Source of the DNA: Balanoglossus misakiensis
Taxonomy: Eukaryota > Animalia > Hemichordata
NCBI GenBank assembly: GCA_040954595.2
Contig: CM082591.2
Location: forward strand, 5,301,009 to 5,365,008
Direction of reading: 5' to 3'
DNA length: 64,000 nt
The notes below the pieces were generated by a model that searched no databases, was not told the origin of the DNA, and saw only the letters and a program-made list of their open reading frames with translations. Below, piece by piece: positions 1-39,431 of this stretch. Numbering within the stretch: position 1 is the stretch's first letter; every line of letters starts with the position of its first letter. Position numbers and translations under genes: made by a program.

Positions 1-3000
1 TTTCATTTGAATATAGTAGATAAACCGCCCAACCATTAACAATGTGTAATTAAATTTTTTCGAATTTTCCACAAATCATAAAAAGGTTTCTTTAAAACGA
101 TAAGAAGTCATATCTTGAAGAAAACATATTTAAATAAAACATATGGTTTCATAATCCTATAAGCCTCATTAGCTGGAATCAATTGCTCACTATACCGATA
201 CTATAGTAGCCCACAACGGTCACATAGTCGACAAATGCATTCGAGACTCACAACCCAAAAGTATATGTACATACAATATATTGTGTTATTAAACCGAATA
301 TTGGACATTATATCGTCCTTTTGAAATTGAGTTAAACAAGACGCCGCAGTTGATAATAAAAAAATCATAATGAAAATAACAGAAACAACTTATGTACTTC
401 AAGATACAGGATTTGTAAAAACAACAATTTTTCATTAAATTCATAATTTCTCCCAAGTAACCGAGATTCTTGTAAATTTATGTAAGGATACTATTTTTTG
501 CGAAAAATTTAATAAATGATAATTCATACACAGTAATATTTATCTCCTAATTAGTATGTTTTTAAAAAAAAAACCTTTAAATATATTTGAATACAATTGA
601 AAATTTTACAATTTCTTTTCTCTGTTAATAGAGGATGCTATAGTTTTGTAAGTGTGAATGCTATCAGTTTGGCAGATGGCTCGATATTTTACACTGTTTA
701 TGCATGCGTACAAATGGCAGAGACCATCTGCATATTCTTACGTCTAGATCCTCTTGTAATTTTAGTAATTGAAATAAGTAGGTTCGCAACTGCATAAATT
801 ATCGCGAGAACCTGTGTAAGAGGAGCTATGTATATTGTATATAGCTGTCTACGATTTGAAATACTTGCAAACAGAAAAGCTATCTTAGCCCAATTTTACA
901 AAGTTAACATCGCCAAGCAATGTAAAGACTGCGCACTAAAGTATCATATCAGGTTGCTTTTAAACTTTCATAAGTGTTCGCATCTTGAGTTTCTGGAGAT
1001 AGAGACGCGTACACAGCTTCCGTCCCATCGGCCACTGCAGCGTTTACATTTACATGTCCGGATTGGGCTTGATCATAGCCAGTCGTCGCTTGTGAAACGG
1101 AGGGGTCAGATTGCAGGTCTCCTAAATCTATGTCGGGCCCATTCCCTGAGGCTTGTTTAGCAGCATCCTGATTATCATGTGGTTTTCTTCCCCGCTTATG
1201 GCGACAGTGTCTTATTCCAAACAATAATCCAACCAGCAAAGCAGCTGTGAGAATGCCGAGAAAGAATCCGATCACCACCCCTACAAAGCCGGTAACAGAC
1301 GGGACATCTGTGTTATCAAATGTAGTATGCGTTGCAACAACGGTTTTCTCAGAGTGTGTTCCTGTTGATGGTACGGTTGTTTCTGTGGATATGGTCGTTA
1401 TTGTTGGGACCACATTATTTCCCTTGACTGTTGAAGATAACGGGACAGTCTGGTCTACGTCACGGATGTTTAGTACCCTTACCCCCAACGATGTCCCTTC
1501 TGCGTTGGTGGCCACGCAGGAATACGAACCCGAGTCTGCCATTTCAACGGATGAGATCAGGAGGCTCCCGTTGTCAACCTGAACCAACTTTTCATGCGAA
1601 CACGCATTCTGCATTTGAGGGTATACAGCCTCCCCACCAGGGGTGAGCCAATATTTAAATGGGTCTGGTACACCTACTACGTCACAATCCAGAGTTACAT
1701 CGTCACCCACGTCGGTGATTATCACTTCGAATACTGTCACAGTGCTAAATACCGGAAGTGGACAACACGTCATGTTGTCCGGTGGTATTTGCAATAACTC
1801 ACGTCCTGCAAGATGATCTGGTGAATTACACACCGTTGGTAAATATCCCAAATTCAATCGATGACTGTTGTCATCCAGCCACAGTCTGAAATCTCGTAAA
1901 CGGCAGTCACACGACCAAGGATTATCGTTAATGTATAAATAACGTAATTTGTCAAGTCCATGGAAAATGTTGCCCGGTAAAGTTGTGATGTCGGTACTGT
2001 ACATATCCAGTCGCTGCAGGTGACCTAAGCCAGCGAATATTTTCGATGGCAAAGTCATAATTGGGTTTCTAAATAAGTAGAGGTAAACCAAATTCGTTAA
2101 CCCATTAAAAACGGTTTCGGGTAGTATAGTTAGTTGATTATCGTACACATACAACGTATTCAAATTTCCCAGGCCCCGAAATAAGTTTTTAGGCAATGCA
2201 TTAATTTGATTGCTGTGTAAATAAAGAGTGCGAAGATTTGTCAATCCATCAAATAAATTTTTAGGTACACACGTTAATTTATTACCAGACAAATAAATCG
2301 TTTCGATGTCTGTCAGTTCATGGAAAATTCTTTCTGGCAAATGGGTGATTTGATTACCATATATGTAAATGGTTCTTAGTTTGGATAGATCCTTGAAAGT
2401 GTTCTCTTGAAGTGTCTCGATACGGTTGGACCACAGTTGAAGATAAGTTAAACTGTTCAGACCAATGAATGCATCTTCGGCTATATAGTAAATTCTGTTT
2501 CTAAACAGCTCTAGCCGTATCAATTCTGAATAGCCGAGAAATGATCCACTTTCAATTCTAGTTATTTTGTTGTGATTGAGTGCAAGTATAGTTGTGTTGT
2601 ATGGTACATCTGAAGGGATTTCCGTCCAGCCTCGGTAATTACAATTGACATCCGTGCCCGAACAAGAGCAGTTTGTTGGACATCCTTGAGTTTGCCGAAG
2701 TAGTGATAAAGCACAGAAAATGAAACCCAGTCCACACAGATATGACATGTCGATGAGTGATGGAGTACTCTGTGGGCAGAATATAATATATATTCAGTTA
2801 TTTTCACATAATTTCTTTAGTTATGTACCGTTCTTAAGATGTCATGGTGGTATTTATTGCGGGTTGTGTGCATTGAAATTGTTGCTGATACACACGCATT
2901 CGATCTATGAATGAAATGATCTTGCACAACAACACACTTTGAAAATCAGTCGTTGTCTGCAAGATTTGAATGATTTTAATATTCTGGCAAATGTCACGGA

Positions 3001-4135
3001 ATATACAGCGTTTTATGTGGGCTGGTGCAGCTCACTGGTTTTCTTTGGAGATGATGAATAAAGTAGTCTTTTCCGGGTTCAAAGGTCCGTGACCGAAGGA
3101 TGACAATAGGTACAATACCAGGCTGTGTGCCGATATGAGGTGTGCCGATATAACAAGACGTGCTTAGGCTTGGTAAACAATGGCGGATCTCTTTCACTCT
3201 CTTCTCACCCAGACACATTTAAGAAGGAATAGAAGCAGATATGACGTTTGTTTGGGGCTCTGGCACAAATAAGCAATTTGCCAAAGATGCAAAATAGAAC
3301 TCAAGACGTATCAAGAAGTGGTTTATACAAGCCGTCGTTGAGACGTGCACAGCGGTTTCGTGCATACAAAACCGAGTGTCGTGTCCAAAGTGGGTAATAG
3401 CACCCGACGGAACAGTCAGATGTTCCAGCTTAAAAACGGGCAAACCTGTTAATTTGATCATTTTGGTATCATGAATGCGACAGCAAATAGTTTGCCAGAC
3501 AGATATTTTGTTGTTGACACTGACTCATAGCTCTGGCGTGATTCTAATGTCCACAGATGACCAGTTCCATTTGCCAATTCATGCGTAACCAAGTTGTTTA
3601 CAAGGGCGCATTGAAAAGTGGAATTTTGCATTCCCCTAATTTTGTTTATACTCGTAGGCTATATGAATAAAAGCCAAAATTCATTTAATATTCGCGCTTC
3701 ATCTTGTTGTCACATACAATCTCAACTGAAATCGCTGCATGTGATAAACTTACATAGTGATAGAGTTTATGCTGGTATGGTTGGAAAACAGATCTGATAA
3801 TGCTCAACGACAACAAAAATACTTACGTTGACGATTTGTATAATGAATGACAAAATTTTAACTGTGTGGGTAAATGTGGGTAAGACTTACCCTACAATGT
3901 TTCAATGTGCTTAGACACAATCCAGCTTATGCCAGTGTTCTTAGATAGACTCGTGACTGTCCCTGTGCGGTGCTGTCGGCAAGTTTTTTTCTATAAAGGG
4001 TGGGGCAACAAGCATTAGGTAAATGGGAGCAATTATTCACTTTCATGACCCCATGTCATGACGTTTACATCCTGGTATTTCGCGGGGATGAATTTACCAT
4101 GATTTGAAAGTGAACTTTTGAAACAAGTAAACCAC
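1..4135. repeat. Segmental duplication unit containing A1
   Basis: Base 1 (tttcatttgaatatagtagataaaccgccc) recurs at ~4783 and ~14304; homology runs through the gene to aagtaaaccac (~4135, ~8914, ~18567). Confidence 0.92.
949..2748 (-). CDS. LRR-Ig-TM receptor, type A copy 1 (A1); VLR-like/LRRIG-type ectodomain
   Basis: 599 aa ORF: signal peptide, LRRNT (CPTNCSC..C), 9 LRRs mostly of 24 aa plus NPWSCDC LRRCT, Ig domain (VTLDC..W..DSGSYSC), Thr-rich stalk, TM (VVIGFFLGILTAALLVGLLFGI), tail ending YASL-x9-YESL. Confidence 0.95.
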   Translation of the reverse strand: MSYLCGLGFIFCALSLLRQTQGCPTNCSCSGTDVNCNYRGWTEIPSDVPYNTTILALNHNKITRIESGSFLGYSELIRLELFRNRIYYIAEDAFIGLNSLTYLQLWSNRIETLQENTFKDLSKLRTIYIYGNQITHLPERIFHELTDIETIYLSGNKLTCVPKNLFDGLTNLRTLYLHSNQINALPKNLFRGLGNLNTLYVYDNQLTILPETVFNGLTNLVYLYLFRNPIMTLPSKIFAGLGHLQRLDMYSTDITTLPGNIFHGLDKLRYLYINDNPWSCDCRLRDFRLWLDDNSHRLNLGYLPTVCNSPDHLAGRELLQIPPDNMTCCPLPVFSTVTVFEVIITDVGDDVTLDCDVVGVPDPFKYWLTPGGEAVYPQMQNACSHEKLVQVDNGSLLISSVEMADSGSYSCVATNAEGTSLGVRVLNIRDVDQTVPLSSTVKGNNVVPTITTISTETTVPSTGTHSEKTVVATHTTFDNTDVPSVTGFVGVVIGFFLGILTAALLVGLLFGIRHCRHKRGRKPHDNQDAAKQASGNGPDIDLGDLQSDPSVSQATTGYDQAQSGHVNVNAAVADGTEAVYASLSPETQDANTYESLKAT

Positions 4136-5732
4136 ACTCAGATTACTAACGTTTTGTTCTAGCAATGACACGGTTACCTTTCGCCTCAGTAGGGAATCCA
4201 AGCCCAGTTCATAGCTGCGCTGTTTGCAGTGTGTAATTAGCTTTGTATTTCCACATTTGCAATCAACACCATCTCTTTAGTTAAATTATTCGGAATCGGG
4301 ATAATATCCATGCTCATTTTTCATCATAGGGCCAAATAAAAAAAAAATTGCTGTTCCGATTACCCGACCTACCCTAATTTAACCCGCCCACCCTACACTT
4401 TTAGAGCTTCGTAAACCTGGAAGTAAAAATATCGATGTCAATTTTTTGAAAATTGCGCGAATCGAGTACTATGACGAAATCGCGCGCATCACGCAAGAAC
4501 CCATGCTTTGCAAATGAGATGGAATGTATTCACATAGTGTGTTCATAGCCTTAAGACATATCATTTATTAACTGATTAAATTAAATTACAAAATAATTGT
4601 TTGTATGTTAATAATTAATGTATATCATATGCGTTGGTTCATATCCTATACATGTAAGATTTATAGTTATACAAATACATGCAAAATGGTAAATTCAGTA
4701 AAATGCAGAGACAGCGTGTTACAAAAGATAGGGCATAACACGCTCAGTCAGTCAAGACATAATATAATGAAATTAACCATAGTTTCATTTGAATATAGTA
4801 GATAAACCGCCCAACCATTAACACTGTTTAAATTTCTTCGAATTTTCCACAATTCATAAAAAGGTTTCTTTAAAATGATAAGAAGTCATATCTTGAGGAA
4901 AACATAGTTACATAAAAAAGGTGGTTTTTATAATCATATAAGCCTCATTAGCTGGAATCAATTGCTCCCTATACCGATAGTATAGTAGCCCACAACGGTC
5001 ACATAGTCGACAAATGCATTCGAGACTCACAACCCAGAAGTATATGTACACACAATATATTGTGTTATTAAACCGAATATTAGACATTATATCGTTTTTT
5101 TTAAATTGAGTTAAACAAGACGCCGCAGTTGATTATAAAAAAAATTATAATGAAAATAACAGAAAAAACTTATGTACTTCAAGATACAGGATTTGTAAAA
5201 ACAACAATGTTTCATTAAATTCATAATTTCTCCCAAGTAACCGAGATTCTTGTAAATTTATGTAAGGATACTATTTTTTGCGAAAAATTTAATAAATGAT
5301 AATTCATACACAGTAATATTTATCTCCTAATTAGTATGTTTTTTTTAAAAAAAACTTTAAATATATTTAAATACAATTGAAAATTTTACAATTTCTTTTC
5401 TCTGTTAATAGAGGATGCTATAGTTTTGTAAGTGTGAATGCTATCAGTTTGGCAGATGGCTCGATATTTTACACTGTTTATGTATGCGTACAAATGGCAG
5501 AGACCATCTGCATATTCTTACGTCTAGATCCTGTAGTAATTTTAGTAATTGAAATAAGTAGGTTCGGAACTGCATAAATTATCGCGTCAAGCTGTGTAAG
5601 AGGAGCTATGTATATTGTATATAGCTGTCAACGATTTGAAATACTTGCAAACAGAAAAGCTATCTTAGCCCAACTTTACAAACATCGCCAAGCGATGTAA
5701 AGACTGCGCACTGAAGTATCATATCAGGTTGC

Positions 5733-7526
5733 TTATAAACTTTCATAACTGTTCGCATCCTGGGTTTCTGGAGATAGAGACGCGTACGTATCTTCCGTCC
5801 CATCGGCCACTGCAGCGTTAACATATACCTGTCCGGATTGGGCTTGATGGCCGCTCTTCAGTTGTGAATCGTGGACATAAGATTGTAGGTTTCCTAAATT
5901 TATGTCGGCCCCTGTTGGCGTTTCTGCCTTAGACGCTTGTGCAACAGTATCTCGGTTATCATGTGGTCTTCTTCCCCGCTTATGGCGACAGTGTCTTATT
6001 CCAAACAATAATCCGACCAGCAAAGCAGCTGTGAGAATGCCGAGAAAGAATCCGATCACCACCCCTACAAAGCCGGTAACAGATGGGACATCTGTGTTAT
6101 CAAATGTAGTATGCGTTGCAACAGCGGTTTTCGCAGGGTGTGTTCCTGTTGATGGTACGGTTGTTTCTGTGGATGTGGTCATTATTGTTGGGACCACATT
6201 ATTTCCCTTGACTGTTGAAGATAACGGAACAGTCTGGTCTACGTCACGGATGTTTAGTACCCTTACCCCCAACGACGTCCCTTCTGCGTTGGTGGCCACG
6301 CAGGAATACGAACCCGAGTCTGTCATTTCAACGGATGAGATCAGGAGGCTCCCGTTGTCAACCTGAACCAACTTTTCATGCGAACACGCGTTCTGCAGTT
6401 GAGGGTATACAGCCTCCCCACCTGGGGTGAGCCAATATTTAAATGGGTCTGGTACACCCACTACGTCACAATCCAAAGTTACATCGTCACCCAAGTCGGC
6501 GATTATCACTTGGAAGAATGTGTTGAATACCGGAAGTGGATAACACGTCATGTTGTCCGGTGGTATTTGCAATAACTCACGTCCTGCAAGATGATCTGGT
6601 GAATTACACAACATTGGTGAATATCCCAAATTCAATCGGTGACTGTTGTCATCCAGCCACATTCTGAAATCCCGTAAACGGCAGTCACACGACCAAGGAT
6701 TATTGTAAATGTATAAATAACGTAAGTTGTCAAGTCCATGGAAAATCTTTCCCGGTAAAGTTGTGATGTCGGTATTGTACATATGCAGTTGCTGCAGCTG
6801 ACCTAAGCCAGTGAATATTTTCGATGGCAACGTTTTAAGTGGGTTTAGATGTAAGGTGAGGGATAGCAACTCCGTTAACCCATTAAAAATGGTTTCTGGT
6901 AGTGCTGTAAGTTGATTATTGTATATGGACAACGTATTCAAATTTCCCAGGCCCCGAAATAAGTTTTTTGGCAATGCATTAATTTGATTTTCGTATAAAT
7001 AAAGAGCGCTAAGATTTGTCAATCCATCAAATAAATGTTCAGGTACACACGTTAATTTATTACCAGACAAATGAATCACTTCGATGTCTGTCAGTTCATG
7101 GAAAATTCTTTCTGGCATATGGGAGATTTGATTACTATTTATGTAAATGTATCTTAGTTTGGATAGATCCTTGAAAGTGTTCTCTTGAAGTGTCTCGATA
7201 CGGTTGGACCACAGTTGAAGATAAGTTAAACTGTTCAGACCAATGAATGCATCTTCGGCTATATAGTAAATTCTGTTTCTAAACAGCTCTAGCCATATCA
7301 ATTCCGAATAGCCGAGAAATGATCCACTTTCAATTCTAGTTATTTCGTTGCTCCAAAGTCTAAGTATAGTTGTGTTGTATGGTACATCTGAAGGGATTTC
7401 CGTCCAGCCTCGGTTACCACAATTGACGTCCGTGCCAGAACAAGAGCAGTTTGTTGGACATCCTTGAGTTTGCCGAAGTAGCGATAAAGCGCAGAAAATG
7501 AAACACAGTCCACACAGATATGCCAT
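5733..7526 (-). CDS. LRR-Ig-TM receptor, type A copy 2 (A2)
   Basis: 597 aa ORF with the same architecture as A1; tail contains YVN and YASL-x9-YESL. Confidence 0.95.
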   Translation of the reverse strand: MAYLCGLCFIFCALSLLRQTQGCPTNCSCSGTDVNCGNRGWTEIPSDVPYNTTILRLWSNEITRIESGSFLGYSELIWLELFRNRIYYIAEDAFIGLNSLTYLQLWSNRIETLQENTFKDLSKLRYIYINSNQISHMPERIFHELTDIEVIHLSGNKLTCVPEHLFDGLTNLSALYLYENQINALPKNLFRGLGNLNTLSIYNNQLTALPETIFNGLTELLSLTLHLNPLKTLPSKIFTGLGQLQQLHMYNTDITTLPGKIFHGLDNLRYLYIYNNPWSCDCRLRDFRMWLDDNSHRLNLGYSPMLCNSPDHLAGRELLQIPPDNMTCYPLPVFNTFFQVIIADLGDDVTLDCDVVGVPDPFKYWLTPGGEAVYPQLQNACSHEKLVQVDNGSLLISSVEMTDSGSYSCVATNAEGTSLGVRVLNIRDVDQTVPLSSTVKGNNVVPTIMTTSTETTVPSTGTHPAKTAVATHTTFDNTDVPSVTGFVGVVIGFFLGILTAALLVGLLFGIRHCRHKRGRRPHDNRDTVAQASKAETPTGADINLGNLQSYVHDSQLKSGHQAQSGQVYVNAAVADGTEDTYASLSPETQDANSYESL

Positions 7527-9476
7527 GTCGATGACTGATGGAGTATTCTGCGGGGAGAATATAATAATTATATTCAGTTATTTTCACATAATTCCTTTCA
7601 AAGTTATGTACCGTTAGTAAGATGTCATGGTGGTATTTATTTCGGGTTGTGTTCATTGAAATTGTTGCTGATACACACGCATTCGATCTATGAATGAAAT
7701 GATCTTGCACAACAACACACTTTCAAAATCAGTCGTTGTCTGCAAGATTTGAATGATTTTAATATTCTGGCAAATGTCACGGAATATACAGCGTTTTATG
7801 TGGGTGGCTGCGGCTCGCTGGTTTTCTATGGAGATGATGAATAAAGTAGTCTTTTCCGGGTTCAAAGGTCAGTTACGGAAGGATGACAATAAGTACAATA
7901 CCTGGCGGTGTGCTGATATGAGCTGTGTCGATATAACAAGACGTGCTTAGGCTTGGTAAACAATGGCGGATCTCTTTCACTCTCTTCTCACCCAGACATA
8001 TTTAAGAAGGAATAGAAGCAGATATGACGTTTGTTTGGGGCTCTGGCACAAATAAGAAATTTGCCAAAGCTGCAAAAGAGAACTCAAGACGTATCAAGTA
8101 GTGGTTTATAGAAGCCGTCGTTGAGACTTGCGAAGCGGTTTCGTGCATACAAAACCGAGTGTCGTGTCCACAGGGGTAATAGCACCCGACGGAACAGTAA
8201 GATGTTCCAGCTTAAAAACGGGCAAACCTGTTAATTTGATCATTTTGGTATCATGAATGCGACAGCAAATAGTTTGCCAGACAGATATTTTGTTGTTGAC
8301 ACTGACTCATAGCTCTGGCGTGATTCTAATGTCCACAGAGGACCAGTTCCATTTGCCAATTCACGCGTAACCAAGTTGTTTACAAGGGCGCATTGAAAAG
8401 TGGAATTTTGCATTCCCCTAATTTTGTTTATACTCGTAGGCTATACGAATAAAAGCCAAAATTCATTTAATATTCGCGCTTCATCTTGTTGTCACATAAA
8501 ATCTCAACTGAATCGCTGCATGTGATAAACTTACAGAGTGATAGAGATTATGCTGGTATGGTTGGAAAACAGATCTGATAATGCTCAACGACAACAAAAA
8601 TACTTACGTTGACGATTTGTATAATGAATGACAAAAGTTTAAGTGTGTGGGTCAATGTGGGTAAGACTTACCCTACAATGTTTCAATGTGCGTAGACACA
8701 ATCCAGCTTATGCCAGTGTTCTGAGGTAGACTCGTGACTGTCCCTGTGCGGTGCTGTCGGCAAGTTTTTTCTAAAAAGGGTGGCGCCACAAACATTTGCT
8801 AAATGGGAGCAATAATTCACTTCCATGACCCCATGTCATGACGTTTACATCCTGGCATTTCGTGGGGATGAATTTACCATGATTTTGAAATTGAACTTTG
8901 AAAAAGTAAACCACGCTTGAATACGTGCACTCTAATTGTAAAATGATTTGTTTTGCAAAAGTATGAAGGATTTGAGCAACGTGAAATATGTGACGTCATG
9001 TCAAGAAAACACTATACGGTGCGTGGTCCTTAGTGACCGTAAAGGGAGTCTATTCAGAGGCTATACATTGAAATGCACAAGTGGCCATAAAAGTTTCCAT
9101 TGACATGGATCTGTGTCACTGGACAAAACGTCACCAACCATTGGTGTACGCAGACTCTGCACAAAGGGGCTAAGATGGCTCCCCTTGCCCCATAGTGCCA
9201 TCTGTACTACAATGGTTGAGACAGATCACACGGTACAGCCGTCACACTTGGGGCTATTTACTCAGAACGCACTATTTTGTAGCCCAGCAAATTCATCCTT
9301 TTATCTAAGTGATTATGTTCATCAATAAAATACTTTAATCTTGGTCGGCAAATGCCATGTTTTTGACTTTGTTGGGATTTTAGTACCCATTCCTGCATAC
9401 CACGATAGTTTTGTACTCTTGCAACGGGCAGTTGAATAAACGGGTACTGGACGATACACATATTGAAATGTTGGGT

Positions 9477-11693
9477 TCAGATTTCTTGCAAATCTATATC
9501 AAATCTCTGCTCAGCTGCTGGCTCGACTGTTCTTGGTTTTCTGTCCTCAGACGTAACATCGACTGTGTTGCCTTGGTTGTCAAAACTCACTGAAAAGCTA
9601 CCATGTTTTTCGTAAGTATTTTGAATCACTTTGCGGCGACAGTAGCGGACCGCAAATAGTATTCCCATCGCTGCCAGAGTCGCGAGAACTCCCAGAAAGA
9701 ATCCGAGCACGGCCCACACGAGATCAGAATTTCTCGTGTTTTCCATTGTTGTGCTGGAATGGTTCCCGCTGATGTGTGTGCTTTTGAAGGGTCTCTCGGT
9801 GTCTGCTCCCCCTTCTGTCGCGGATTCTGTAACTGCAGGTACATTACCCTCCGTTACATGCGGGACTTTTGTGCTACTGAATGACACGGTTGCCGTGGTG
9901 ATTGCCAGTGGCATGGTTGTTTTGGCCAACGTTTCCCCAGCCGTTCTAACCTCAGTTGTCGAGACTATAGATGACAGTGTTTGAGATCTACCTGAAGTTC
10001 TCAATAATGAACTACTCTGTTCTGTATAAGTTACTGTGGATGGTTTATGTGATGTTAACGGCGTTGTTCTTTCTATGTAACTTATCGTGGTTGGTAAATC
10101 AGGTGTTGATGTGAATGGAGTGGTATGTTCCATATGACTATTTGTTGATGTCATTGCTAATGTTGTTAACGGCGAAGTCTGTTCTGTGTAACCGAGATTT
10201 AGTATTCTTACACCCACAGACGTTCCCTGTGAGTTCGTCGCGACGCAAGAATACGAACCCAAATCTGACATCTGTACGTTTTGAATGAAGAGGCCCCCGC
10301 CATTTGTACGACCCGTGCTTTCATTCGGACACGTATCTTGCGATGGTAGGCGTACAACCAAACCTGGTGGAGTAATCCAGTATTTATCTGGATCGGGCTC
10401 GCCAACTACGTCACAATCCAAAGTCACGCTGTGCCCTATGTCTGTGGTTAGTGTTCTAACCGGCGTGACGAATACCGGAAGTGGATAGCAAGTAAGATTG
10501 TTCAGTGGTATTTGCAGCACATTCTCTCCCACGTGGGTGTCTGGGGAATCACAAGTCATAGCTGTAGAACCATAGTAAAGTCGGCCATCATTATCCATGA
10601 GCCACGCTTTAAGGTCTTTCAAACGACAGTCACATGACCAGGGATTGTCGTAGAGGTATAAGTAATCTAAGTCATCAAGACCATCGAACACAGTACTCGG
10701 TAGAGTTGTGAGGCTGTTATTTTGTAGGTACAATTTATCCAATTGGCCCAAACCTTGGAATATTTTCAGCGGTAACGTTGTTAATGCATTGAATTCCAAA
10801 TACAGCTGGCTCAACATATTCAACCGTTCGAAAATGTTCTCTGGCATTGACTTTAACGGGTTTCTGCTCAAAGTGAGAAACTGCAGCTCTACCAAGTCAT
10901 CGAATAGCCGTCCAGGCAACGTGGTGATCTTATTAGAGTTTAGATACAGTTTCTCCAGACTTGATAGTCCGCTGAACAGATCGGCTGCTAGGCACGCCAG
11001 TTTATTGCTGGCTAGGTGAAGAGTTTGAAGATGTGCGAGTCCGCGGAAGATACCCGCGGGTAAGTGTGTGATTTGGTTATTGTATGCGTAAATAGCACTT
11101 ATGTATCTCAGGTTAGTAAAGAGGTCCTCCCGGAGCGTCGTGAAGTTGTTGTTGTTTAGACCAAGAGTCTCAATTTCACCAAGGCTCTCGAATATTCCTT
11201 CCGGTAGGACACTCAGCTGAGTGAAACTGACGCTCAGGGATCGTATTTTGCCTAGGCCTTGGAAGATTTGTTGTGGCAAGGAACCCAGGCCATTTCTGTA
11301 CACGTTAAGGTGCAACAGCTCGTGCAGACCGTGGAATATAGTCTCCGGCAACGACGATAGCAAGTTCTCGTTGATGTGGAGAGACTGCAGACGATTAAGT
11401 CCAGCGAACGCATCTTCGCCCATGTAGGTGATGTCATTGTGGTCCAGATGCAATTCCAAAAGTTGAGGATATCCCAGAAAGGAGCCGTTCTCCACGCGAG
11501 TTAGGTGGTTGTAGTTCAGTTTCAGAATGGTCGTGTCAATCGATATGTTGGCTGGGATCTCTCTCAGTTGCCGGTAACTGCAATCGACGCGGGTTTGAAA
11601 GCATGAACAATTGGCTGGACACCCTTGGTTCATTGGCAATAGTGTCACAGTGGAAAATAGCAAATAAACGCCACATACAAATAGGTATGCCAT
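9477..11693 (-). CDS. LRR-Ig-TM receptor, type B copy 1 (B1)
   Basis: 738 aa ORF: signal peptide, LRRNT, 12 LRRs plus LRRCT, Ig domain, long Ser/Thr mucin-like stalk, TM (LVWAVLGFFLGVLATLAAMGILFAV), short tail with no YxxL pair. Confidence 0.95.
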   Translation of the reverse strand: MAYLFVCGVYLLFSTVTLLPMNQGCPANCSCFQTRVDCSYRQLREIPANISIDTTILKLNYNHLTRVENGSFLGYPQLLELHLDHNDITYMGEDAFAGLNRLQSLHINENLLSSLPETIFHGLHELLHLNVYRNGLGSLPQQIFQGLGKIRSLSVSFTQLSVLPEGIFESLGEIETLGLNNNNFTTLREDLFTNLRYISAIYAYNNQITHLPAGIFRGLAHLQTLHLASNKLACLAADLFSGLSSLEKLYLNSNKITTLPGRLFDDLVELQFLTLSRNPLKSMPENIFERLNMLSQLYLEFNALTTLPLKIFQGLGQLDKLYLQNNSLTTLPSTVFDGLDDLDYLYLYDNPWSCDCRLKDLKAWLMDNDGRLYYGSTAMTCDSPDTHVGENVLQIPLNNLTCYPLPVFVTPVRTLTTDIGHSVTLDCDVVGEPDPDKYWITPPGLVVRLPSQDTCPNESTGRTNGGGLFIQNVQMSDLGSYSCVATNSQGTSVGVRILNLGYTEQTSPLTTLAMTSTNSHMEHTTPFTSTPDLPTTISYIERTTPLTSHKPSTVTYTEQSSSLLRTSGRSQTLSSIVSTTEVRTAGETLAKTTMPLAITTATVSFSSTKVPHVTEGNVPAVTESATEGGADTERPFKSTHISGNHSSTTMENTRNSDLVWAVLGFFLGVLATLAAMGILFAVRYCRRKVIQNTYEKHGSFSVSFDNQGNTVDVTSEDRKPRTVEPAAEQRFDIDLQEI

Positions 11694-13809
11694 ACCGTCC
11701 TGCTGTTAGGCTACATCAGCTGATGAAATGATCTGGAGAAAAATTCAAAATGTTATTTTTAAACATGGTAACAAAACGCCAAATTTAAGGCTCAGGGATT
11801 TGAAAAGCAACTTAATCTACAGTGGTTTCATTAGCCTATTTGAGTATAAACATTTATTTTAATGCATTGAGGCGGATTTTGTATTTTTTCATGTAGTCAA
11901 AGAAACTCCATTTAGCATGAAATATGTGGTACCATTTATTTCACAGCGTAAATTAATTGCATTCTTTGACTGCCCGCTTGAGGTAAAAAAACGAGTGACA
12001 AAAATGCTAAATTGACCTACATTTTATATTTGCAGACACACACTTGCTTTGTTCATATTACAAAGCGCGTGGGTCAAGGCAGGTCCCTTTTACCTGCCCC
12101 CGAGGAGAACGTTGACATACATTAACACATAAGACAGGCCGTGTCAGTGTACAAGGTAAACACATGCAACAATTACATACAGAATGGGATCTCGGCGGCA
12201 ACACATAGGCCTACGTGCATAGCAGCCGCGCTAGTGAAGGTAAAATCGAGTAGAAATTTAAACCTATGTCAATTCTGACTGGCGCATGTAATACCTTTAA
12301 TGTAACGTGGTCATACACCTCCCTTATTATTTCATAGTTCATTTTTCTTCAGATATACGGTTACCCAGAGATACAGGTGTAGGCCTAGTAGTGTCGCTCA
12401 CAACGACGGCCGCGGGAACCCTTCCCAGTATCCTATAGCACCAGTAAACAGTGTCACCACACTCCTCCCGTATAATGCCAGAGAATTGATATTGCGTACC
12501 ACACAAAGACATACATGTATACTGCTTAGGCTAGTTCAAAAGGAAGACTGCTCACCTAATTGATAAGGCAGCTTACGGTTTTCGGCGGGACAATTTCGTC
12601 GTCTGCGTCTGGGATTCGTGCTTCGCCATAGAAGTTGTAGTTAACGTCATAGGTCAGGGGTCAGACGGTGGGTCACGCCTCTGTTATTGTTCCGGTTCGC
12701 TGTATTCAAATGAACTGCGCTCTGGTATGTTAGGGCCTATAGCCGAAATATCGGTTTGGTTCGCCTGTGTTACTGGCATGTTAGGCCTATTCATGGATAC
12801 TGCGGTATTGGGTCGCTGGATCAATCGAGAAATTAACCGATCCTTCCAGGAAATTTTCGCCCACAACCAAAATGAGACTGAAAATACGGTGTCAGATTTA
12901 TGAATCTCAGCTATTTGGAAAAAGGACTGAAAACTTTCACGAATTACAGTAAAACAAGGCATTGCATTGAATTTGCATGTTGTAATACACGATGAACGAG
13001 TTCTCATTTGCAGATGTACAGGTCAGATTATAGTACCGTCTAGACGTTTGAGTGCATATAATAATAGGCCTACACTCCAAATAACGTACTGAGTCGTGTT
13101 TGAGTCCGTGGAAGACACTTTTACGTTGGCCTAATGAGTGAATTACTTTATATCTTCAATTCATTTCCATTTCGCACCAAGAAACATAACGAGTGGATAT
13201 TAAAATTATTGTTTCTCCATTAAAGATATGTGTGGAGCAATGACGTGGAAATGTTAAGTATCGGTCTATAGACCCGTGAGAAAAAGTGGTCATAAATTAA
13301 GTGATGTTTTATGGCAGGAACTAAAGTTTTGTAGTTTCGTATGGGAAGAAAGTTTTCGTTTACATAATGGCATTTTGAAATGAAGTGAAATCTGAAAATT
13401 ATTTAGTGTCGCTGATAGTGACGGTTTAATGGTCTTTGCATTTCTTCCCATTGTTCTGTTGGCGTGTCGTGACTGTACGTGCATGCAAGGAATTCCTGGG
13501 GTTTCATGGGGCGCGGTGGTTGACTGCTTGTTTACAAAGAGCACCGCGGTCCGGTGTAGCATACATACAGTTGTCACTGTTAGCGGCTTAGGGTCATAAT
13601 ATAGTTAGCGAATTCAATGGATTCAACCTGCTGGTAACAATGACCGCTCTGGTTCGCGGCGTTCAGGTTTTGTGTCGATGCAAATAAGAGCAGGGTGTCC
13701 TTCTCGTCACCTTTGAACCGGGAACTACGGCGCGGTATTTACGCGGCTACATTTTACTTTCGTCAGAATGTATCAAATCGACGTTTCCGCCAGAAGGGTC
13801 TGGGCAGAC

Positions 13810-13866
13810 ATGGCGACGCCGTGCGCGGGAGGGAATTTGACAGGATTCTTCGCGCTATTTCTCTGA
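13810..13866 (+). pseudogene. Truncated copy of exon 1 (signal peptide) of SRCR-WSC-CUB-CCP receptor 1
   Basis: ATG..MATPCAGGNLTGFFALFL* matches MATLCAGGILTGFFALFL at 23535; similarity stops at the duplication breakpoint. Confidence 0.8.
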
Positions 13867-15262
13867 TACAATGATTTCTCTGTCGTCAAAATTGGCAACA
13901 TAACAGGCGAAAACATTGCACCATGATTTAGTTGTTTGCGCCCAAGTGAATACTAATCTATCGTTAACGTCTGTGGAAAAGTAGAAAAAATAATTTGCAT
14001 TTACAGTTAGCTGGCCTCAGTGATTCTCTCATCCAAAAGACACAATAACATTCGTTCCCATGCGTTCATAGCCATAAATCATATTATTTTATTAACTGAT
14101 GCAATGACATTACAATTTTTTTTTAATGTTAATAATAAATGTATATCATATGCGTTGGTTCATATCCTATGCATGTAAGATTTATAGTTATACAAATACA
14201 TGCAAAATGGTAAATTCAGTAAAATGCAGAGACAGCGTGTTACAAAAGATAGGGCATAACACGCTCAGTCAGTCAAGACATAATATAATGAAATTAACCA
14301 TAGTTTCATTTGAATATAGTAGATAAACCGCCCAACCATTAACACTGTTTAAATTTCTTCGAATTTTCCACAATTCATAAAAAGGTTTCTTTAAAATGAT
14401 AAGAAGTCATATCTTGAAGAAAACATAGTTAAATCAAACAGATGGTTTCATAATCCTATAAGCCTCATTAGCTGGAATCAATTGCTCACTATATACCGAA
14501 AGTCGACGTAGCCCACAACGGTCACAAAGTTGACAAATGCATTCGAGACTCACAGCCAAAAGTATATGTACACACAATATATTGTGTTATTAAACCGAAT
14601 ATTGGACATTATATCGTCCTTCTGAAATTGAGTTAAACAAGACGCCGCAGTTGATAATAAAACAATTATAATGAAAATAACAGAAACAACTTATGTACTT
14701 CAAGATACAGGATTTGTAAAAACAACAATGTTTCATTAAATTCATAATTTCTCCCAAGTAACCGAGATTCTTGTAAATTTATGTAAGGAAACTATTTTTT
14801 GCGAAAAAATTAATAAATGATAATTCATACACAGTTATATTTATCTCCTAATCAGTATGTTTTTTAAAAAAATTCCTTTAAATATATTTGAATACAATTG
14901 AAAATTTTACAATTTCTTTTCTCTGTTTATTAAGGATGTTTTATCAGCTTAGTTTTGTAAGCGTGAATGCTATTAGTTTGGCAGATGGCTCGACATTTTA
15001 CACTGATTATGCATGCGTACAAATGGCAGAGACCATCTGCATATTCTTACGTCTAGATCCTCTAGTAATTTTAGTAAGTGAAATAAGTAGGTTCGGAATT
15101 GCATAAATTATCGCGTCAACCAGTGTAAGAGGAGCTATGTATATTGTATAGCTGTCTACGATTTGAAATACTTGCAAACAGAAAAGCTATCTTTATAGCC
15201 CAACTTTACAAACATCGCCAAGCAATGTAAAGACTGCGCATTAAAGTATCATATCAGGTTGC

Positions 15263-17182
15263 TTATAAACTTTCATAAGTGTTCGCATCCTGGGTTTCTG
15301 GAGATAGAGACGCGTACGCAGCTTCCGTCCCATCGGGCATTGCAGCGTTTACATATACGTGTCCGGATTGGGCTTGATGGCCGCTCTTCAGCTGTGAACC
15401 GTGGACATAAGATTGTAGGTTTCCTAAATTTATGTCGGCCCCTGTTGGCGTTTCTTCCTTAGACGCTTGTGCAACAGTATCTCGGTTATCATGTGGTCTT
15501 CTTCCCCGCTTATGGCGACAGTGTCTAATTCCAAACAATAATCCAACCAGCAAAGCAGCTGTGAGAATGCCGAGAAAGAATCCGATCACTGCCCCTACAA
15601 AAAGTGGATTGGCGATCTTCATGTCAGCAGCAGTTTCAGCCGTTTCCTCGGTGACAGACGGGACATCTGTGTTATCAAATGTAGTATGCGTTTCAACAGC
15701 GGTTTTCGCAGGGTGGGTTCCTGTTGATGGTGCGGTTGTTTCTTCGGATGTAGACATTATTGTTGTGTCAGCCTGTCCTGTCGTTGGGATTCCATTGTTG
15801 GTCGGCTCTGTCGTTGGAATCACATCGTTGACCTCCTTTGTTGTTGGGGCCGCACTGTTTCCCATGACTGTCGAAGTTAACGGAACAGTCTGGTCTACGT
15901 CACGGATGTTTAGTACCCTTACCCCCAACGACGTCCCTTCTGCGTTGGTGGCCACGCAGGAATACGAACCCGAGTCTGTCATTTCAACGGATGAGATCAG
16001 GAGGCTCCCGTTGTCAACTTGAACCAACTTTTCATGCGAACACGCGTTCTGCAGTTGAGGGTATACAGCCTCCCCACCAGGGGTGAGCCAATATTTAAAT
16101 GGGTCTGGTTCACCAACTACGTCACAATCCAATGTTACATTGTCACCCACGTCCGTGATTATCACTTCGAATTCTGTGCTGAATACCGGAAGTGGATAAC
16201 ACGTCATGTTGTCCGGTGGTATTTGCAATAACTCACGTCCTGCAAGATGATCTGGTGAATTACACATCATTGGTGGAGATCCCAAATTCAATCGGTGACT
16301 GTTGTCATCCAGCCACATTCTGAAATCCCGTAAACGGCAGTCACACGACCAAGGATTATTGTAAATGTATAAATAACCTGAGTTGTCAAGTCCATGGAAA
16401 ATCTTTCCCGGCAAAGTTGTTATGTCGTTATTGTACATATGCAGCCACTTCAGCTGACCTAAGCCAGTGAATATTTTCGATGGCAAGGTTTTCATTGGGT
16501 TTTGACCTAAGTTGAGGTATGTCAACGTCGTTAACCCATTAAAAACGGTTTCGGGTAGTATAGTTAGTTGATTATCGTACATATACAACGTATGCAAATT
16601 TCCCAGGCCCCGAAATAAGTTTTTAGGCAATGCATTAATTTGATTGCTGTGTAAGTAAAGAGCGCGAAGATTTGTCAATCCATCAAATACATTTTCAGGA
16701 ACACACGTCAATCTATTATGAGCCAAATGAATCCTGTCGATGTCTGTCAGTTCATGGAAAATTCTTTCTGGCAAATGGGAGATTTGATTATTATGTATGT
16801 GAATGTCTCTTAGTTTGGATAGATCCTTGAAAGTGTTCTCTTGAAGTGTCTCGATACGGTTGGACGCCAGGTGAAGAAAAGTTAAACTGTTCAGACCAAT
16901 AAATGCATCTTCAGCTATATAGTAAATTCTATTGCCATGCAGGTCTAGGTGTAGCAATTCTGAATAGTTGATAAAGGATTCGCTTTCAATTCTAGTTATG
17001 TCGTTGTTGTAGAGTAAAAGTTTGGCTGTGTTGTATGGTACATCTGAAGGGATTTCCGTCCAGCCTCGGTTACCACAATTGACGTTCGTGCCAGTACAAT
17101 AGCAGCTTGTTGGACATCCTTGAGTTTGCCGAAGTAGCGATAAAGCACAGAAAATGAAACCCAGTCCACACAGATATGCCAT
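15263..17182 (-). CDS. LRR-Ig-TM receptor, type A copy 3 (A3), long-stalk variant
   Basis: 639 aa ORF with type A architecture; about 42 extra residues in the stalk; tail YVN and YASL-x9-YESL. Confidence 0.95.
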   Translation of the reverse strand: MAYLCGLGFIFCALSLLRQTQGCPTSCYCTGTNVNCGNRGWTEIPSDVPYNTAKLLLYNNDITRIESESFINYSELLHLDLHGNRIYYIAEDAFIGLNSLTFLHLASNRIETLQENTFKDLSKLRDIHIHNNQISHLPERIFHELTDIDRIHLAHNRLTCVPENVFDGLTNLRALYLHSNQINALPKNLFRGLGNLHTLYMYDNQLTILPETVFNGLTTLTYLNLGQNPMKTLPSKIFTGLGQLKWLHMYNNDITTLPGKIFHGLDNSGYLYIYNNPWSCDCRLRDFRMWLDDNSHRLNLGSPPMMCNSPDHLAGRELLQIPPDNMTCYPLPVFSTEFEVIITDVGDNVTLDCDVVGEPDPFKYWLTPGGEAVYPQLQNACSHEKLVQVDNGSLLISSVEMTDSGSYSCVATNAEGTSLGVRVLNIRDVDQTVPLTSTVMGNSAAPTTKEVNDVIPTTEPTNNGIPTTGQADTTIMSTSEETTAPSTGTHPAKTAVETHTTFDNTDVPSVTEETAETAADMKIANPLFVGAVIGFFLGILTAALLVGLLFGIRHCRHKRGRRPHDNRDTVAQASKEETPTGADINLGNLQSYVHGSQLKSGHQAQSGHVYVNAAMPDGTEAAYASLSPETQDANTYESL

Positions 17183-19130
17183 GTCGATAACTGATGGAGT
17201 ATTCTGCGGGGAGAATATAATATATATTCAGTTATTTTCACATAATTCCTTTAGTTATGTACCGTTCTTAAGATGTCATGGTGGTATTTATTTTGGGTTG
17301 TGTTCATTGAAATTGTTGCTGATACACACGCATTCGATCCATGAATGAAATTATCTTGCACAACAACACACTTTCAAAATCAGTCGTTGTCTGCAAGATT
17401 TGAATGATTTTAATATTCTGGCAAATGTCACGGAATATACAGCGTTTTATGTGGGTGGGTGCGGCTCATTGGTTTTCTATGGAGAAGATGAATAAAGTAG
17501 TATTTTCCAGGTTCAAAGGTGAGTGATCGAAGGATGACAATAGGTTCAATACTAGGCGGTGTGCCGATATGAGCTGTGCCGATATAAGAAGATATGCGTA
17601 GGCTTGGTAAACAATGGCGGATCTCTTTCACTCTCTTCTCACCCAGACACATTTAAGAAGGAATAGAAGCAGATATGACGTTTGTTTGGGGCTCTGGCAC
17701 AAATAAGAAATTTGCCAAAGATGCAAAATAGAACTCAAGACGTATCAAGTAGTGGTTTATACAAGCCGTCGTTGAGACGTGCACAGCGGTTTCGTGCATA
17801 CAAAACCGAGTGTCGTGTCCAAAGGGGGTAATAGCACCCGACGGAACAGTCAGATGTTCCAGCTTAAAAACGGGCAAACCTGTTAATTTGATCATTTTGG
17901 TATCATGAATGCGACAGCAAATAGTTTGCCAGACATATATTTTGTTGTTGACACTGACTCATAGCTTTGGCGTGATTCTAATGTCCACAGAGGACCAGTT
18001 CCATTTGCCAATTCACGCGTAACCAAGTTGTTTACAAGGGCGCATTGAAAAGTGGAATTTTGCATTCCCCTAATTTTGTTTATACTCGTAGGCTATGTGA
18101 ATAAAAGCCAAAATTCATTTAATATTCGCGCTTCATCTTGTTGTCACATAAAATCTCAACTGAAATCGCTGCATGTGATAAACTTACATATTGATAGAGA
18201 TTATGCTGGTATGGTTGGAAAAAAGATCTGATAATGCTCAACGACAACAAAAATACTTACGTTGACGATTTGTATAATGAATGACAAAATTTTAACTGTG
18301 TGGGTCAATGTGGGTAAGACTTACCCTACAATGTTTCAATGTGCGTAGACACAACCAGGCTTATGCCAGTGTTCTGAGATAGACTCGTGACTGTCCCTGT
18401 GCGGTGCTGTCGGAAAGTTTTTTTCTATAAAGGGTGGGGCAACAAACATTGGTAAATAGGAGCAATAGTTCACTTCCATGACCCCATATCCTGACGTAGA
18501 CATTCTGGCATTTCGGGGGATGAATTTACCATGATTTTGAAATTGAACTTTGAAAAAAAGTAAACCACGCTTGAATACGTGCACTCTAATCATAAAATGA
18601 TTTGTTTTGCAATAGTATTAAGGATTTATGTAAAGTAAAATGATATGTGGCGTCAATACACTATACGGTGCGTGGTCCTCAATGGCCTTGAACGGGAGTC
18701 TATTCAGAGGCTATACATTGAAATGCACAAGTGGCCATAAAAGTTTCCATTGACATGGATCTGTGTCACTGGACAAAACGTCACCAACCATTGGTGTACG
18801 CAGACTCTGCACAAAGGGGCTAAGATGGCTCCCCTTGCCCCCTATAGTGCCATCTGTATACTACAATGGTTGAGACAGATCACACGGTACAGCCGTTACA
18901 CTTGGGGCTATTTACTCAGAACGCACTATTTTGTAGCCCAGCAAATTCATCCTTTTATCTAAGTGATTATGTTCATCAATAAATTTCTTTAATCTTGGTC
19001 GGCAAATGCCATGTTTTTGACTTTGATGGGATTTTAGTACCCATTCCTGCATACCACGATAGTTTTGTACTCTTGCAACGGGCAGTTGAATAAGCGGGTA
19101 CTGCACGATACATATATTGAAATGTTGGGT

Positions 19131-21347
19131 TCAGATTTCTTGCAAATCTATATCAAATCTCTGCTCAGCTGCTGGCTCGACTGTTCTTGGTTTTCTGTCC
19201 TCAGACGTAACGTCGACTGTATTACCTTGGTTGTCAAAACTCACTGAAAAGCTACCATGTTTTTCGTAAGTATTTTGAATCACTTTGCGGCGACAGTAGC
19301 GGACCGCAAATAGTATTCCCATCGCTGCCACAGTCGTGAGAACTCCCAGAAAGAATCCGAGCACGGCCCACACAAGATCAGAATTTCTCGTGTTTTCCAA
19401 TGTTGTGCTGGAATTGTTCCCGCTGATGTGTGTGCTTTTGAAGGGTCTCACGGTGTCTGCTCCCCCTTCTGTCGCGGATTCTGTAACTGCAGGTACATTA
19501 CCCTCCGTTACATGCGGGACTTTTGTGCTACTGAATGACACGGTTGCCGTGGTGATTGCCAGTGGTATGGTTGTTTTGGCCAACGTTTCTCCAGCCGTTC
19601 TAACCTCAGTTGTCGAGACTATAGATGACAGTGTTTGAGATCTACCTGAAGTTCTCAATAATGAACTACTCTGTTCTGTATAAGTTACTGTGGATGGTTT
19701 ATGTGATGTTAACGGCGTTGTTCTTTCTATGTAACTTATCGTGGTTGGTAAATCAGGTATTGATGTGAATGGAGTGGTATGTTCCATATGACTATTTGTT
19801 GATGTCATTGCTAATGTTGTTAACGGCGAAGTCTGTTCTGTGTAACCGAGATTTAGTATTCTTACTCCCGCAGAAGTTCCCTGTGAGTTCGTCGCTACGC
19901 AAGAATACGAACCCAAATCTGACATCTGTACGTTTTGAATGAAGAGACCCCCGCCATTTGTACGACCCGTGCTTTCATTCGAACACGTATCTTGCGGCTG
20001 TAGGCGTACAACCAAACCTGGTGGAGTAATCCAGTATTTATCTGGATCGGGCTCGCCAACTACGTCACAATCCAAAGTCACGCTGTGCCCTATGTCTGTG
20101 GTTAGTGTTCTAACCGGCGTGACGAATACCGGAAGTGGATAGCAAGTAAGATTGTTCAGTGGTATTTGTAGCACATTCGCTCCCGCATGGGTTTCTGGGG
20201 AATCGCACGTCATAGCTGTAGAACCATAGTAAAGTCGGCCATCATTATCCATGAGCCACGCTTTAAGGTCTTTCAAACGACAGTCACATGACCAGGGATT
20301 GTCGTAGAGGTATAAGTAATCTAAGTCATCAAGACCATCGAACACAGTACTCGGTAGAGTTGTGAAGCTGTTATTTTGTAGGTACAGTTTATCCAATTGA
20401 CCCAAACCTTGGAATATTTTCAGCGGTAACGTTGTTAATGCATTGAATTCCAAATACAGCTGGCTCAACATATTCAACCGTTCGAAAATGTTCTCTGGCA
20501 TTGACTTTAACGGGTTTCTGCTCAAAGTGAGAAACTGCAGCTCTACCAAGTCATCGAATAGACGTCCAGGCAACGTGGTGATCTTATTAGAGTTTAGATA
20601 CAGTTTCTCCAGACTTGATAGTCCGCTGAACAGATCTGCTGCTAGGCACGCCAGTTTATTGCTGGCTAGGTGAAGAGTTTGAAGATGTGTGAGTCCGCGG
20701 AAGATACCCGCGGGTAAGTGTGTGATTTGGTTATTGTATGCGTAAATAGTACTTATGTATCTCAGGTTAGTAAAGCGGTCCTCCCGGAGCGTCGTGAAGT
20801 TGTTGTTGTTTAGATAAAGAGTCTCAATTTCAACAAGGCTCTCGAATATTCCTTCCGGTAGGACACTCAGCTGAGTGAAACTGACGCTCAGGGATCGTAT
20901 TTTGCCTAGGCCTTGGAAGATTTGTTGTGGCAAGGAACCCAGGCCATTTCTGTACACGTTAAGGTGCAACAGCTCGTGCAGACCGTGGAATATAGTCTCC
21001 GGCAACGACGACAGCAAGTTCTCGTTGATGTGGAGAGACTGCAGACGATAAAGTCCAGCGAACGCATCTTCGCCCATGTAGGTGATGTCATTGTGGTCCA
21101 GATGCAATTCCAAAAGTTGAGAATATCCCAGAAAGGAGCCGTTCTCCACGCGAGTTAGGTGGTTGTAGTTCAGTTTCAGAATGGTCGTGTCAATCGATAT
21201 GTTGGCTGGGATCTCTCTCAGTTGCCGGTAACTGCAATCGACGCGGGTTTGAAAGCATGAACAATTGGCTGGACACCCTTGGATCATTGGCAATAGTGTC
21301 ACAGTGGAAAAAAGCAAATAAACGCCACATACAGATAGGTATGCCAT
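19131..21347 (-). CDS. LRR-Ig-TM receptor, type B copy 2 (B2)
   Basis: 738 aa ORF; roughly 23 aa differences from B1 by manual comparison. Confidence 0.95.
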   Translation of the reverse strand: MAYLSVCGVYLLFSTVTLLPMIQGCPANCSCFQTRVDCSYRQLREIPANISIDTTILKLNYNHLTRVENGSFLGYSQLLELHLDHNDITYMGEDAFAGLYRLQSLHINENLLSSLPETIFHGLHELLHLNVYRNGLGSLPQQIFQGLGKIRSLSVSFTQLSVLPEGIFESLVEIETLYLNNNNFTTLREDRFTNLRYISTIYAYNNQITHLPAGIFRGLTHLQTLHLASNKLACLAADLFSGLSSLEKLYLNSNKITTLPGRLFDDLVELQFLTLSRNPLKSMPENIFERLNMLSQLYLEFNALTTLPLKIFQGLGQLDKLYLQNNSFTTLPSTVFDGLDDLDYLYLYDNPWSCDCRLKDLKAWLMDNDGRLYYGSTAMTCDSPETHAGANVLQIPLNNLTCYPLPVFVTPVRTLTTDIGHSVTLDCDVVGEPDPDKYWITPPGLVVRLQPQDTCSNESTGRTNGGGLFIQNVQMSDLGSYSCVATNSQGTSAGVRILNLGYTEQTSPLTTLAMTSTNSHMEHTTPFTSIPDLPTTISYIERTTPLTSHKPSTVTYTEQSSSLLRTSGRSQTLSSIVSTTEVRTAGETLAKTTIPLAITTATVSFSSTKVPHVTEGNVPAVTESATEGGADTVRPFKSTHISGNNSSTTLENTRNSDLVWAVLGFFLGVLTTVAAMGILFAVRYCRRKVIQNTYEKHGSFSVSFDNQGNTVDVTSEDRKPRTVEPAAEQRFDIDLQEI

Positions 21348-38980: not shown

Positions 38981-39431
38981 CGTGGATGGCAAGTATGAAA
39001 TTTTGACTAACGTAGCGGGAAGGTATGGTACCTGTGACACCGGAAACAAGTTGATATCAAATAACATACAAATTAACAACCAACACGCACGCGCGCGCGC
39101 ACATTCGTTAAGAACATTGTTCCCATTGCTCAAGCTTTACATATCCTACGGGTCATTTTTTAATCAGAATTCGAATTCGGACCTACCTTATTCAAGAAAG
39201 CCAAGGTACAGCAGCTCTCAGCCAGATCACCATTCGCCAAATGACTAGGCAGCTCAGATGTATCAGCCTCCTTCTGGGCTTGGGTGCTTATACAAAATGC
39301 GATTGGGGCCTGGACTGTTTTATAACCACACGCAATGTTTATACATGTAGTACCTCTCTATAAGTATATAACCTCTTTACTGATAATTGCAAGGCTAGGG
39401 CACGGTAACCCCAATTGTTTGGTGATTTGCA

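Follow-up and report, generated by a model that had tools for sequence, protein, structure and literature searches.

Variable lymphocyte receptors (VLRs) of lampreys and hagfish are built in lymphocytes from an incomplete gene, which has a non-coding gap for leucine-rich repeats (LRRs), and from hundreds of flanking cassettes (PMC3308329); this somatic assembly is linked to CDA1/CDA2. In the coffee SH3-CNL cluster of type I resistance (R) genes, chimeric tandem paralogues undergo frequent exchange, and the ratio of replacement to silent change (Ka/Ks) exceeds 1 only at the x residues of the xxLxLxx motif (PMC3113787). The Anopheles APL1 genes are LRR immune paralogues with high replacement diversity that is attributed to gene conversion (PMC9222773), and sea-urchin Toll-like receptors (TLRs) form tandem arrays with positive selection on their concave beta-strands (PMC3367398). 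Here, we describe a locus of five LRR genes in the acorn worm Balanoglossus misakiensis, contained in a 64,000-nucleotide (nt) stretch (assembly GCA_040954595.2, contig CM082591.2, positions 5,301,009 to 5,365,008; hereafter, the window, to which all positions refer).

By the open reading frame (ORF) list, five single-exon genes lie on the minus strand within the first 24 kb of the window, in the order A1, A2, B1, A3, B2, and each is a complete ORF. The three A genes are patchworks of one another, matched in register, and it is fairly likely that these arose by inherited gene conversion or unequal crossover, combined with diversifying selection on a predicted ligand-binding face. The original prediction, made from the sequence alone, began the array at position 1900; its first gene begins lower. 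The genes are as follows:

949 to 2748, minus strand: A1, a single-exon coding sequence (CDS) of 599 amino acids (aa), recognized by ORF, Pfam, and motifs, with signal peptide, LRRNT, 10 LRR strands, LRRCT, immunoglobulin (Ig) domain, short Thr-rich stalk, transmembrane segment (TM), and a tail whose proximal part is divergent and lacks the YxN tyrosine.
5733 to 7526, minus strand: A2, 597 aa, architecture as in A1, short stalk; ORF, Pfam, and fold model with a predicted local distance difference test (pLDDT) score of 90.3.
15263 to 17182, minus strand: A3, 639 aa, architecture as in A1, long stalk; ORF, Pfam, and alignment.
9477 to 11693, minus strand: B1, an A-related LRR-Ig-TM gene with 13 LRR strands, a long stalk, and a tail without tyrosine motifs.
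19131 to 21347, minus strand: B2, a near-twin of B1, differing at proportions of 0.038 of silent sites (pS) and 0.015 of replacement sites (pN).

Pfam placed LRRNT, LRR (LRR_8), and Ig (Ig_3, I-set) domains above cut-off in A1, A2, A3, and B1; the signal peptide, Thr-rich stalk, TM, and tail were assigned by reading the sequence.

We aligned the three A units with their flanks and scored every variable site for which copy was the odd one, such that the counts given below are two-state sites in the order A1-odd/A2-odd/A3-odd. The closest pair switches along the gene, as the original prediction had claimed. Over LRR2-3, 15 of the 16 two-state sites set A3 apart (0/1/15) and A1 groups with A2, a tendency extending through LRR5 (2/2/8). 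Over LRR6-7, it is A2 that is odd at 17 of 23 sites (3/17/3), and A1 groups with A3. The stalk again groups A1 with A2 (6/1/14, plus two gaps of 81 and 45 nt common to both), as does the TM (0/1/6), with A3 odd at 20 of 28 sites in the two together, and the proximal tail groups A2 with A3 (30/0/1, i.e., 30 of 31 sites A1-odd). The pairs foreseen for LRR6-7 and the short stalk are thus borne out. Others survive in part: an A1–A2 block drawn from LRRNT to LRR3 holds for LRR2-3 but dissolves in LRRNT (5/0/4, without such a grouping) and is weak in LRR1 (3/4/10, plus 3 sites where all three copies differ), and an A2–A3 tail holds in its proximal but not its distal part (5/4/2). An A2–A3 grouping from LRR9 to LRRCT is weak (13/1/10), with A2 near both A1 and A3. 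The proposed A1–A3 grouping of the immediate 5′ flank is at best weak: counts in the first 100 nt (5/2/1) place A2 with A3, and A1–A3 is favoured by two small indels and two substitutions only. The best-delimited tracts are listed here:

2374 to 2562, minus strand: A1 = A2 tract, codons 63-125 (A2 at 7152-7340), with 2 nt differences in 189 nt.
6861 to 7013, minus strand: LRR6-7 tract with A2 odd, codons 172-222 (A1 at 2083-2235, A3 at 16517-16669).
15603 to 15840, minus strand: A3 stalk, with 81 nt at 15760-15840 and 45 nt at about 15603-15647 that are missing from A1 and A2.
1048 to 1185, minus strand: A1 proximal-tail tract, 24% divergent from A2 and A3 at both silent and replacement sites, and carrying two indels; A2 and A3 differ at 3 nt across this span.

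A 6-nt direct repeat flanks the 81 nt (15,760-15,840) that A1 and A2 lack in the stalk, which fits loss by slippage from a long-stalk ancestor. Two short-read contigs carry slightly different long stalks.

The clustering of labels was evaluated by permutation after all changes within one codon had been merged, whatever their label, and mixed-label events had been dropped (287 events over CDS and flanks, 238 of them single-label). Among the 146 single-label codon events of the CDS, 85 neighbours carry the same label versus 52 expected (P = 0.0002), and the result is likewise P = 0.0002 without the tail. Clustering is also seen at non-contact codons of the LRR domain (22 versus 13.4 expected, P = 0.003; contact codons are defined below) and at silent LRR codons (12 versus 6.6 expected, n = 19, P = 0.005). 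Block structure retested at non-contact and silent sites gave P values of 5e-5 and 3e-4, which are optimistic, given that the borders were set from the same data. By the Bayesian information criterion, three to five segments (290.6 to 294.6) are favoured over one (314.7) by 20 to 24 units, and the gain from six segments (45.7) exceeds that in 60 of 60 shuffles (maximum, 25.5). Five breakpoints result: one across an LRR border (codons 163-179), one at codons 222-231 (within LRR8 in our numbering), one at the TM/tail border, one in mid-tail, and one that cannot be placed. The two within the LRRs tell little about module borders because their support intervals span 17 and 10 codons on a 24-codon period. 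An alternative procedure, which collapsed same-label sites lying within 3 or 10 nt, lost most of the signal but deletes the very neighbours being counted, and it was replaced.

Variation in the A genes is concentrated on one face of the repeats. Repeat positions 2, 3, 5, 7, and 8 vary in 8 or 9 of the 10 LRRs, every other position in at most 3, and the AlphaFold model of A2 puts the strands at repeat positions 3 to 5. The 50 contact codons per A gene (those predicted to lie on the concave face) have a pN of 0.29 to 0.39, versus a CDS-wide pS of 0.09 to 0.13 (Fisher P = 2e-7 to 1e-12), i.e., they change roughly three to four times faster than silent sites; 25 to 35 of the 50 contact residues differ per pair, and pN is about 0.05 at other LRR positions. 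One position of the LRRCT also varies (codons 302-309). Within the A1 = A2 tract, contact residues differ between these two copies at 1 of 11 positions, versus 8 of 11 against A3. B1 and B2 differ by only 3 nucleotides in 65 contact-type codons, though their flanks have diverged as much as those of the A genes. Changes at the A contact codons comprise 27 transitions and 29 transversions, and a deaminase-type spectrum is not evident at these codons. At codon 268 of A3 (16,379-16,381), Ser occupies the first Leu position of the last LRR; A1, A2, B1, and B2 have Leu there.

Silent divergence offers a view of the age of the tracts. In the LRR6-7 tract, non-contact pS is 0.018 between A1 and A3 and 0.14 to 0.16 against A2; taking four tracts together (codons 63-125, 172-222, 437-521, and 522-567), it is 0.018 to 0.032 within the close pair and 0.12 to 0.31 against the odd copy. 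Since the background is 0.043 to 0.056 in the flanks and a pS of 0.038 between B1 and B2, the odd tract appears to predate the duplications and the close pair to postdate them. The simplest reading would be recent copying between two copies, combined with the retention or import of variants that predate the present duplications. Among the odd tracts, the A1 tail is the plainest example, and directly downstream of it A1 lacks the YxN tyrosine.

The original prediction had taken these blocks for LRR modules shuffled among copies, a germline analogue of cassette-based VLR assembly, and had proposed a genome search for free-standing cassettes. Exchange among copies stands, but shuffling by module does not. 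All 27 A modules (LRR1 to LRR9 in three genes) match the same-numbered module at 76 to 100%, with the best other module at 49 to 67%, so no module has moved; the LRR number is fixed at ten strands in A1, A2, and A3. A tblastn search of the 64-kb window at an E value of 10 returned no LRR fragment outside the five genes apart from 3 stray hits (E = 4.3 to 8.0), VLR loci spanning about 2 Mb. A cassette-shuffling system is therefore very unlikely: three testable features of VLRs (an incomplete germline gene, free cassettes within the window, and modules variable in position or number) are all absent.

In the mechanism that we favour, misaligned pairing of the 4.8-kb and 9.5-kb repeat units in the germline would copy tracts of 100 to 400 nt between homologous positions, and some tracts would come from older copies or alleles lying outside the window. 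Selection, diversifying or balancing, would keep old variants around the contact residues while the flanks are homogenized, and each tract would bring a patch of contact residues with it, giving rise to new binding surfaces. The receptor would likely bind a variable foreign or allogeneic ligand and signal via phosphorylated tail tyrosines. We lean somewhat towards an immune or self/non-self (allorecognition) role; that the A genes form a germline polymorphic immune or allorecognition family without any somatic step is a narrower proposal, on which we are evenly divided.

Several points weigh against this account. The flanks carry no significant triplet signal (P = 0.14 to 0.52) and no large blocks; taken across the entire CDS, silent sites reach only borderline significance (P = 0.04 to 0.05), silent-only triplet tests are mostly non-significant (P = 0.05 to 0.70), and few silent sites are available (19 in the LRR domain). 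The choice of contact codons followed the LRR consensus but was made with the alignment already in view, and a same-codon dN/dS (replacement versus silent rate) test is weaker, reaching significance in two of three pairs (P = 0.03, 0.12, and 0.03). A block test on four Ptychodera paralogues at the protein level gave no signal (16 informative columns, P = 0.68). Three sequences without a close outgroup identify neither the donors nor the direction of copying, and conversion, double crossover, and import from an unseen copy look alike. The three DNA runs available for checking the assembly (X1, X2, and X3) are one sample, perhaps the source of the assembly itself, and include no second individual. 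As to function, the nearest solved structures are the neuronal adhesion receptors LINGO-1 and NGL, and the role is predicted from sequence.

Could the mosaic have arisen with no exchange at all? Three copies of nearly equal age, subject to lineage-wise bursts of selection on neighbouring LRRs, might mimic one, and the star-like flanks (pairwise divergence of 4.3 to 5.6%, no triplet signal), the strong selection on strands, and the many multi-hit codons all suit such a history. It is nevertheless improbable: non-contact and silent sites still show the blocks, silent divergence in the A1 tail tract stands at 24%, and A1 and A2 have 10 of 11 contact residues in common over codons 63-125 and 4 of 9 over codons 126-171. 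More improbable still is that haplotype switching (which the original prediction had named as fatal to it), or two alleles placed in tandem, produced chimeras during assembly. The two A+B units do differ by only about 4% outside genes, and none of the listed contigs covers an entire gene or crosses a unit junction. Against this, A2 6801-6958, which crosses the second breakpoint, is letter-perfect in one contig in both X1 and X2, leaving one A2 junction intact; there, A2 has no run longer than 30 nt in common with A1 or A3, so a 31-mer path (31 being, we presume, the contig word length) should not swap copies. Branches specific to A1, A2, and A3 each occur in X1 at a depth of about 31 to 37. 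B contigs have depths of 70 to 73, versus 39 to 52 for four flank contigs, where merged alleles would give at most flank depth, although this argument is weak because, as the tool warns, contig depth is not copy number (B copy number read from depth is ambiguous, at 3 for a haploid depth of 30 or, worked by hand, 4 for about 23). A 1.8-kb tetranucleotide run was assembled through, which suggests long reads.

A VLR-like system, in which a recipient gene receives modules copied from a pool of donors, either in the germline or somatically, is a very improbable account of the array, even though both processes are templated copying, the variation falls on the concave face and one LRRCT position, and further family members seem to be present outside the window (loose contig ends). 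VLRs and A genes resemble each other in their LRR solenoid, variable concave face, Thr-rich stalk, and conversion-like templated copying; they part in that VLRs undergo lymphocyte assembly from an incomplete gene and cassettes (PMC3308329), neither of which is seen here, with no out-of-register module and two of the four placeable breakpoints outside the LRRs (TM/tail border and tail), and in that the A genes have an Ig domain, a TM, and a tail with tyrosine motifs. Equally improbable is an acorn-worm variable LRR system for immunity or allorecognition in which tandem complete genes and alleles would serve as conversion donors for a hypervariable face, with a tyrosine signalling tail, an invariant B partner, and copying that also takes place in somatic immune cells; if true, each cell would bear a different receptor, and an invertebrate deuterostome would have a forerunner or parallel of VLR assembly that needs no cassettes. 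Any bearing of this locus on VLR origins would depend on somatic copying being shown. Gene conversion or unequal crossover could also have acted on genes for gamete, adhesion, or neural recognition instead of defence, which concerns the function step only and which we consider unlikely, if well short of negligible. The architecture matches that of NGL/LRRC4 and LINGO-1, and positive selection also acts on proteins of gamete recognition; the NGL and LINGO genes of vertebrates are, against this, conserved and not arrayed. What is seen here, namely tandem expansion, hypervariable strands, and a pair of tail tyrosines, fits immune receptors (PMC3367398, PMC3113787).

Set beside the described systems, the A genes are close in pattern to plant type I R genes, being chimeric tandem paralogues probably produced by exchange, with Ka/Ks above 1 at solvent-exposed strand residues, and the B pair, conserved next to such variable neighbours, is reminiscent of the split between type I and type II (PMC3113787). 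They are unlike R genes in being animal LRR-Ig-TM receptors with a tyrosine tail and no NB-ARC, and no descent is implied. As in APL1, these are invertebrate LRR genes with probable conversion between paralogues, but APL1C is described as secreted (PMC10898737) and the A genes have an Ig domain, TM, and signalling-type tail. As in sea-urchin TLRs, they are tandem ambulacrarian LRR receptors with likely selection on strands, but they lack a TIR domain, and the sea-urchin paper contains no occurrence of “gene conversion” or “recombination” (PMC3367398). The ectodomain, LRRNT-LRR-LRRCT-Ig, is that of NGL/LRRC4 and LINGO-1 (PDB 3zyi, 3zyj, 3zyo, 2id5), and signal peptide, LRRNT, LRRs, LRRCT, Ig, and TM are all present; NGL chains align over query residues 3-427, and their TM-score is 0.65 to 0.68 (Foldseek). 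At only 24 to 30% identity, this likeness is one of architecture, and the vertebrate genes are conserved neuronal receptors. Tomato Cf-4/Cf-9 is reportedly a further type I-style example. Amphioxus FrLRR was set aside as a comparator on account of its different, glycosylphosphatidylinositol-anchored architecture (PMC10199209).

The proposed mechanism is already known, but the gene family seems undescribed in the literature searched: no paper on the acorn-worm A/B family was found in a search that excluded subscription journals and supplements of hemichordate genome papers. What gives the locus its value is not the mosaic itself but a hypervariable face together with a tyrosine tail, in a phylum that has been little studied. 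Listed TLR counts are 8 in Saccoglossus versus 253 in the purple sea urchin (PMC3367398); with so few hemichordate TLRs, the A family is a concrete candidate for the carrier of recognition diversity.

All three A tails terminate in a YxxL-x9-YxxL motif, at these positions (hand-counted from the translations):

961 to 1011 (A1), 5736 to 5786 (A2), and 15266 to 15316 (A3), minus strand: ITAM-like YxxL-x9-YxxL.

The consensus for an immunoreceptor tyrosine-based activation motif (ITAM) is YxxL/I-x(6-8)-YxxL/I (PMC10008955), and the spacer of 9 in the three A tails makes them ITAM-like only. A2 and A3 also have the YxN upstream, which we take to be a Grb2-type site; the B tails have neither this site nor the YxxL-x9-YxxL motif. 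The three best hits to the A protein are from Ptychodera flava and Glandiceps talaboti (38 to 41% identity over 88 to 100% of the query), and among 7997 candidates scored, the C-terminal half matches 3 proteins only, all from these two species. The A tail tyrosines and YxN align with the Ptychodera and Glandiceps tails, such that the motif is kept between Ptychoderidae and Spengelidae: both YxxL tyrosines are present in 4 of 5 aligned relatives and the first in all 5. The two species belong to two enteropneust families, and four more Ptychodera hits, whose longest contig equals that of the best hit in length, suggest a cluster in that genus as well. A further search, against protein representatives, gave mainly very long proteins with many LRRs and was discarded.

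Short-read contigs also point beyond the five genes. Of the 40 variant letters listed against A2 (155 further rows are not included), 39 are A1 or A3 letters and 1 is new. One contig at A2 6582-6828 differs from A2 at 24 places, against 16 for A1 and 12 for A3 (union, 26), which suggests that a fourth A-type copy or allele exists. Contigs at 6,423-6,706 match the LRRCT/Ig region and then continue in sequence that matches neither A nor, judged by eye, B, one of them resembling the Ig start of Ptychodera proteins, which suggests a third, more distant subfamily elsewhere in the genome. A low-depth X3 contig resembling an A1/A2 recombinant was set aside, A1 and A2 being identical over 143 nt there, where a graph path can switch.

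The array itself results from two tandem duplications, in both of which non-coding divergence is 4 to 6%, and A1 is preceded by a likely intron:

1 to 8917: A-unit tandem duplication (1-4138 = 4783-8917, 93%; self-BLAST), with homology reaching the left edge of the window.
4538 to 23590: A+B-unit tandem duplication (4538-13865 = 14061-23590; self-BLAST), with non-coding divergence of 4.0 to 5.7%.
2770 to 3890, minus strand: likely 5′ untranslated region intron of A1, with GT..AG judged by eye from the alignment.

Because of this likely intron, the “immediate 5′ flank” of A1 is probably intronic.

Beyond the array, the window appears to contain a cluster of multi-exon CUB/Sushi/WSC genes. CUB and Sushi exons occur at 27,152-27,616 and 39,426-40,652, with more at 46,727-47,596 (minus strand) and 56,237-56,716 (plus strand). 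Downstream of the first two lie long acidic ORFs (29,222-31,819 and 41,431-42,246, plus strand) that have no Pfam match and contain many repeated DNxxY(E/D) tyrosine motifs; these may be the tails of further tyrosine-signalling receptors beside the LRR array. Some 1.8 kb of near-pure (TATG)n (53,890-55,670) directly precedes an exon-like stretch with a WSC domain (55,680-56,060). Dispersed high-copy repeat sequence occupies 25,490-25,780, where summed contig depth is about 1,900 to 5,000 versus about 50 to 80 nearby, and an ORF resembling family 2 glycosyltransferases, contained in a single exon and with a hydrophobic stretch at its N terminus, lies at 59,872-61,017 (plus strand).

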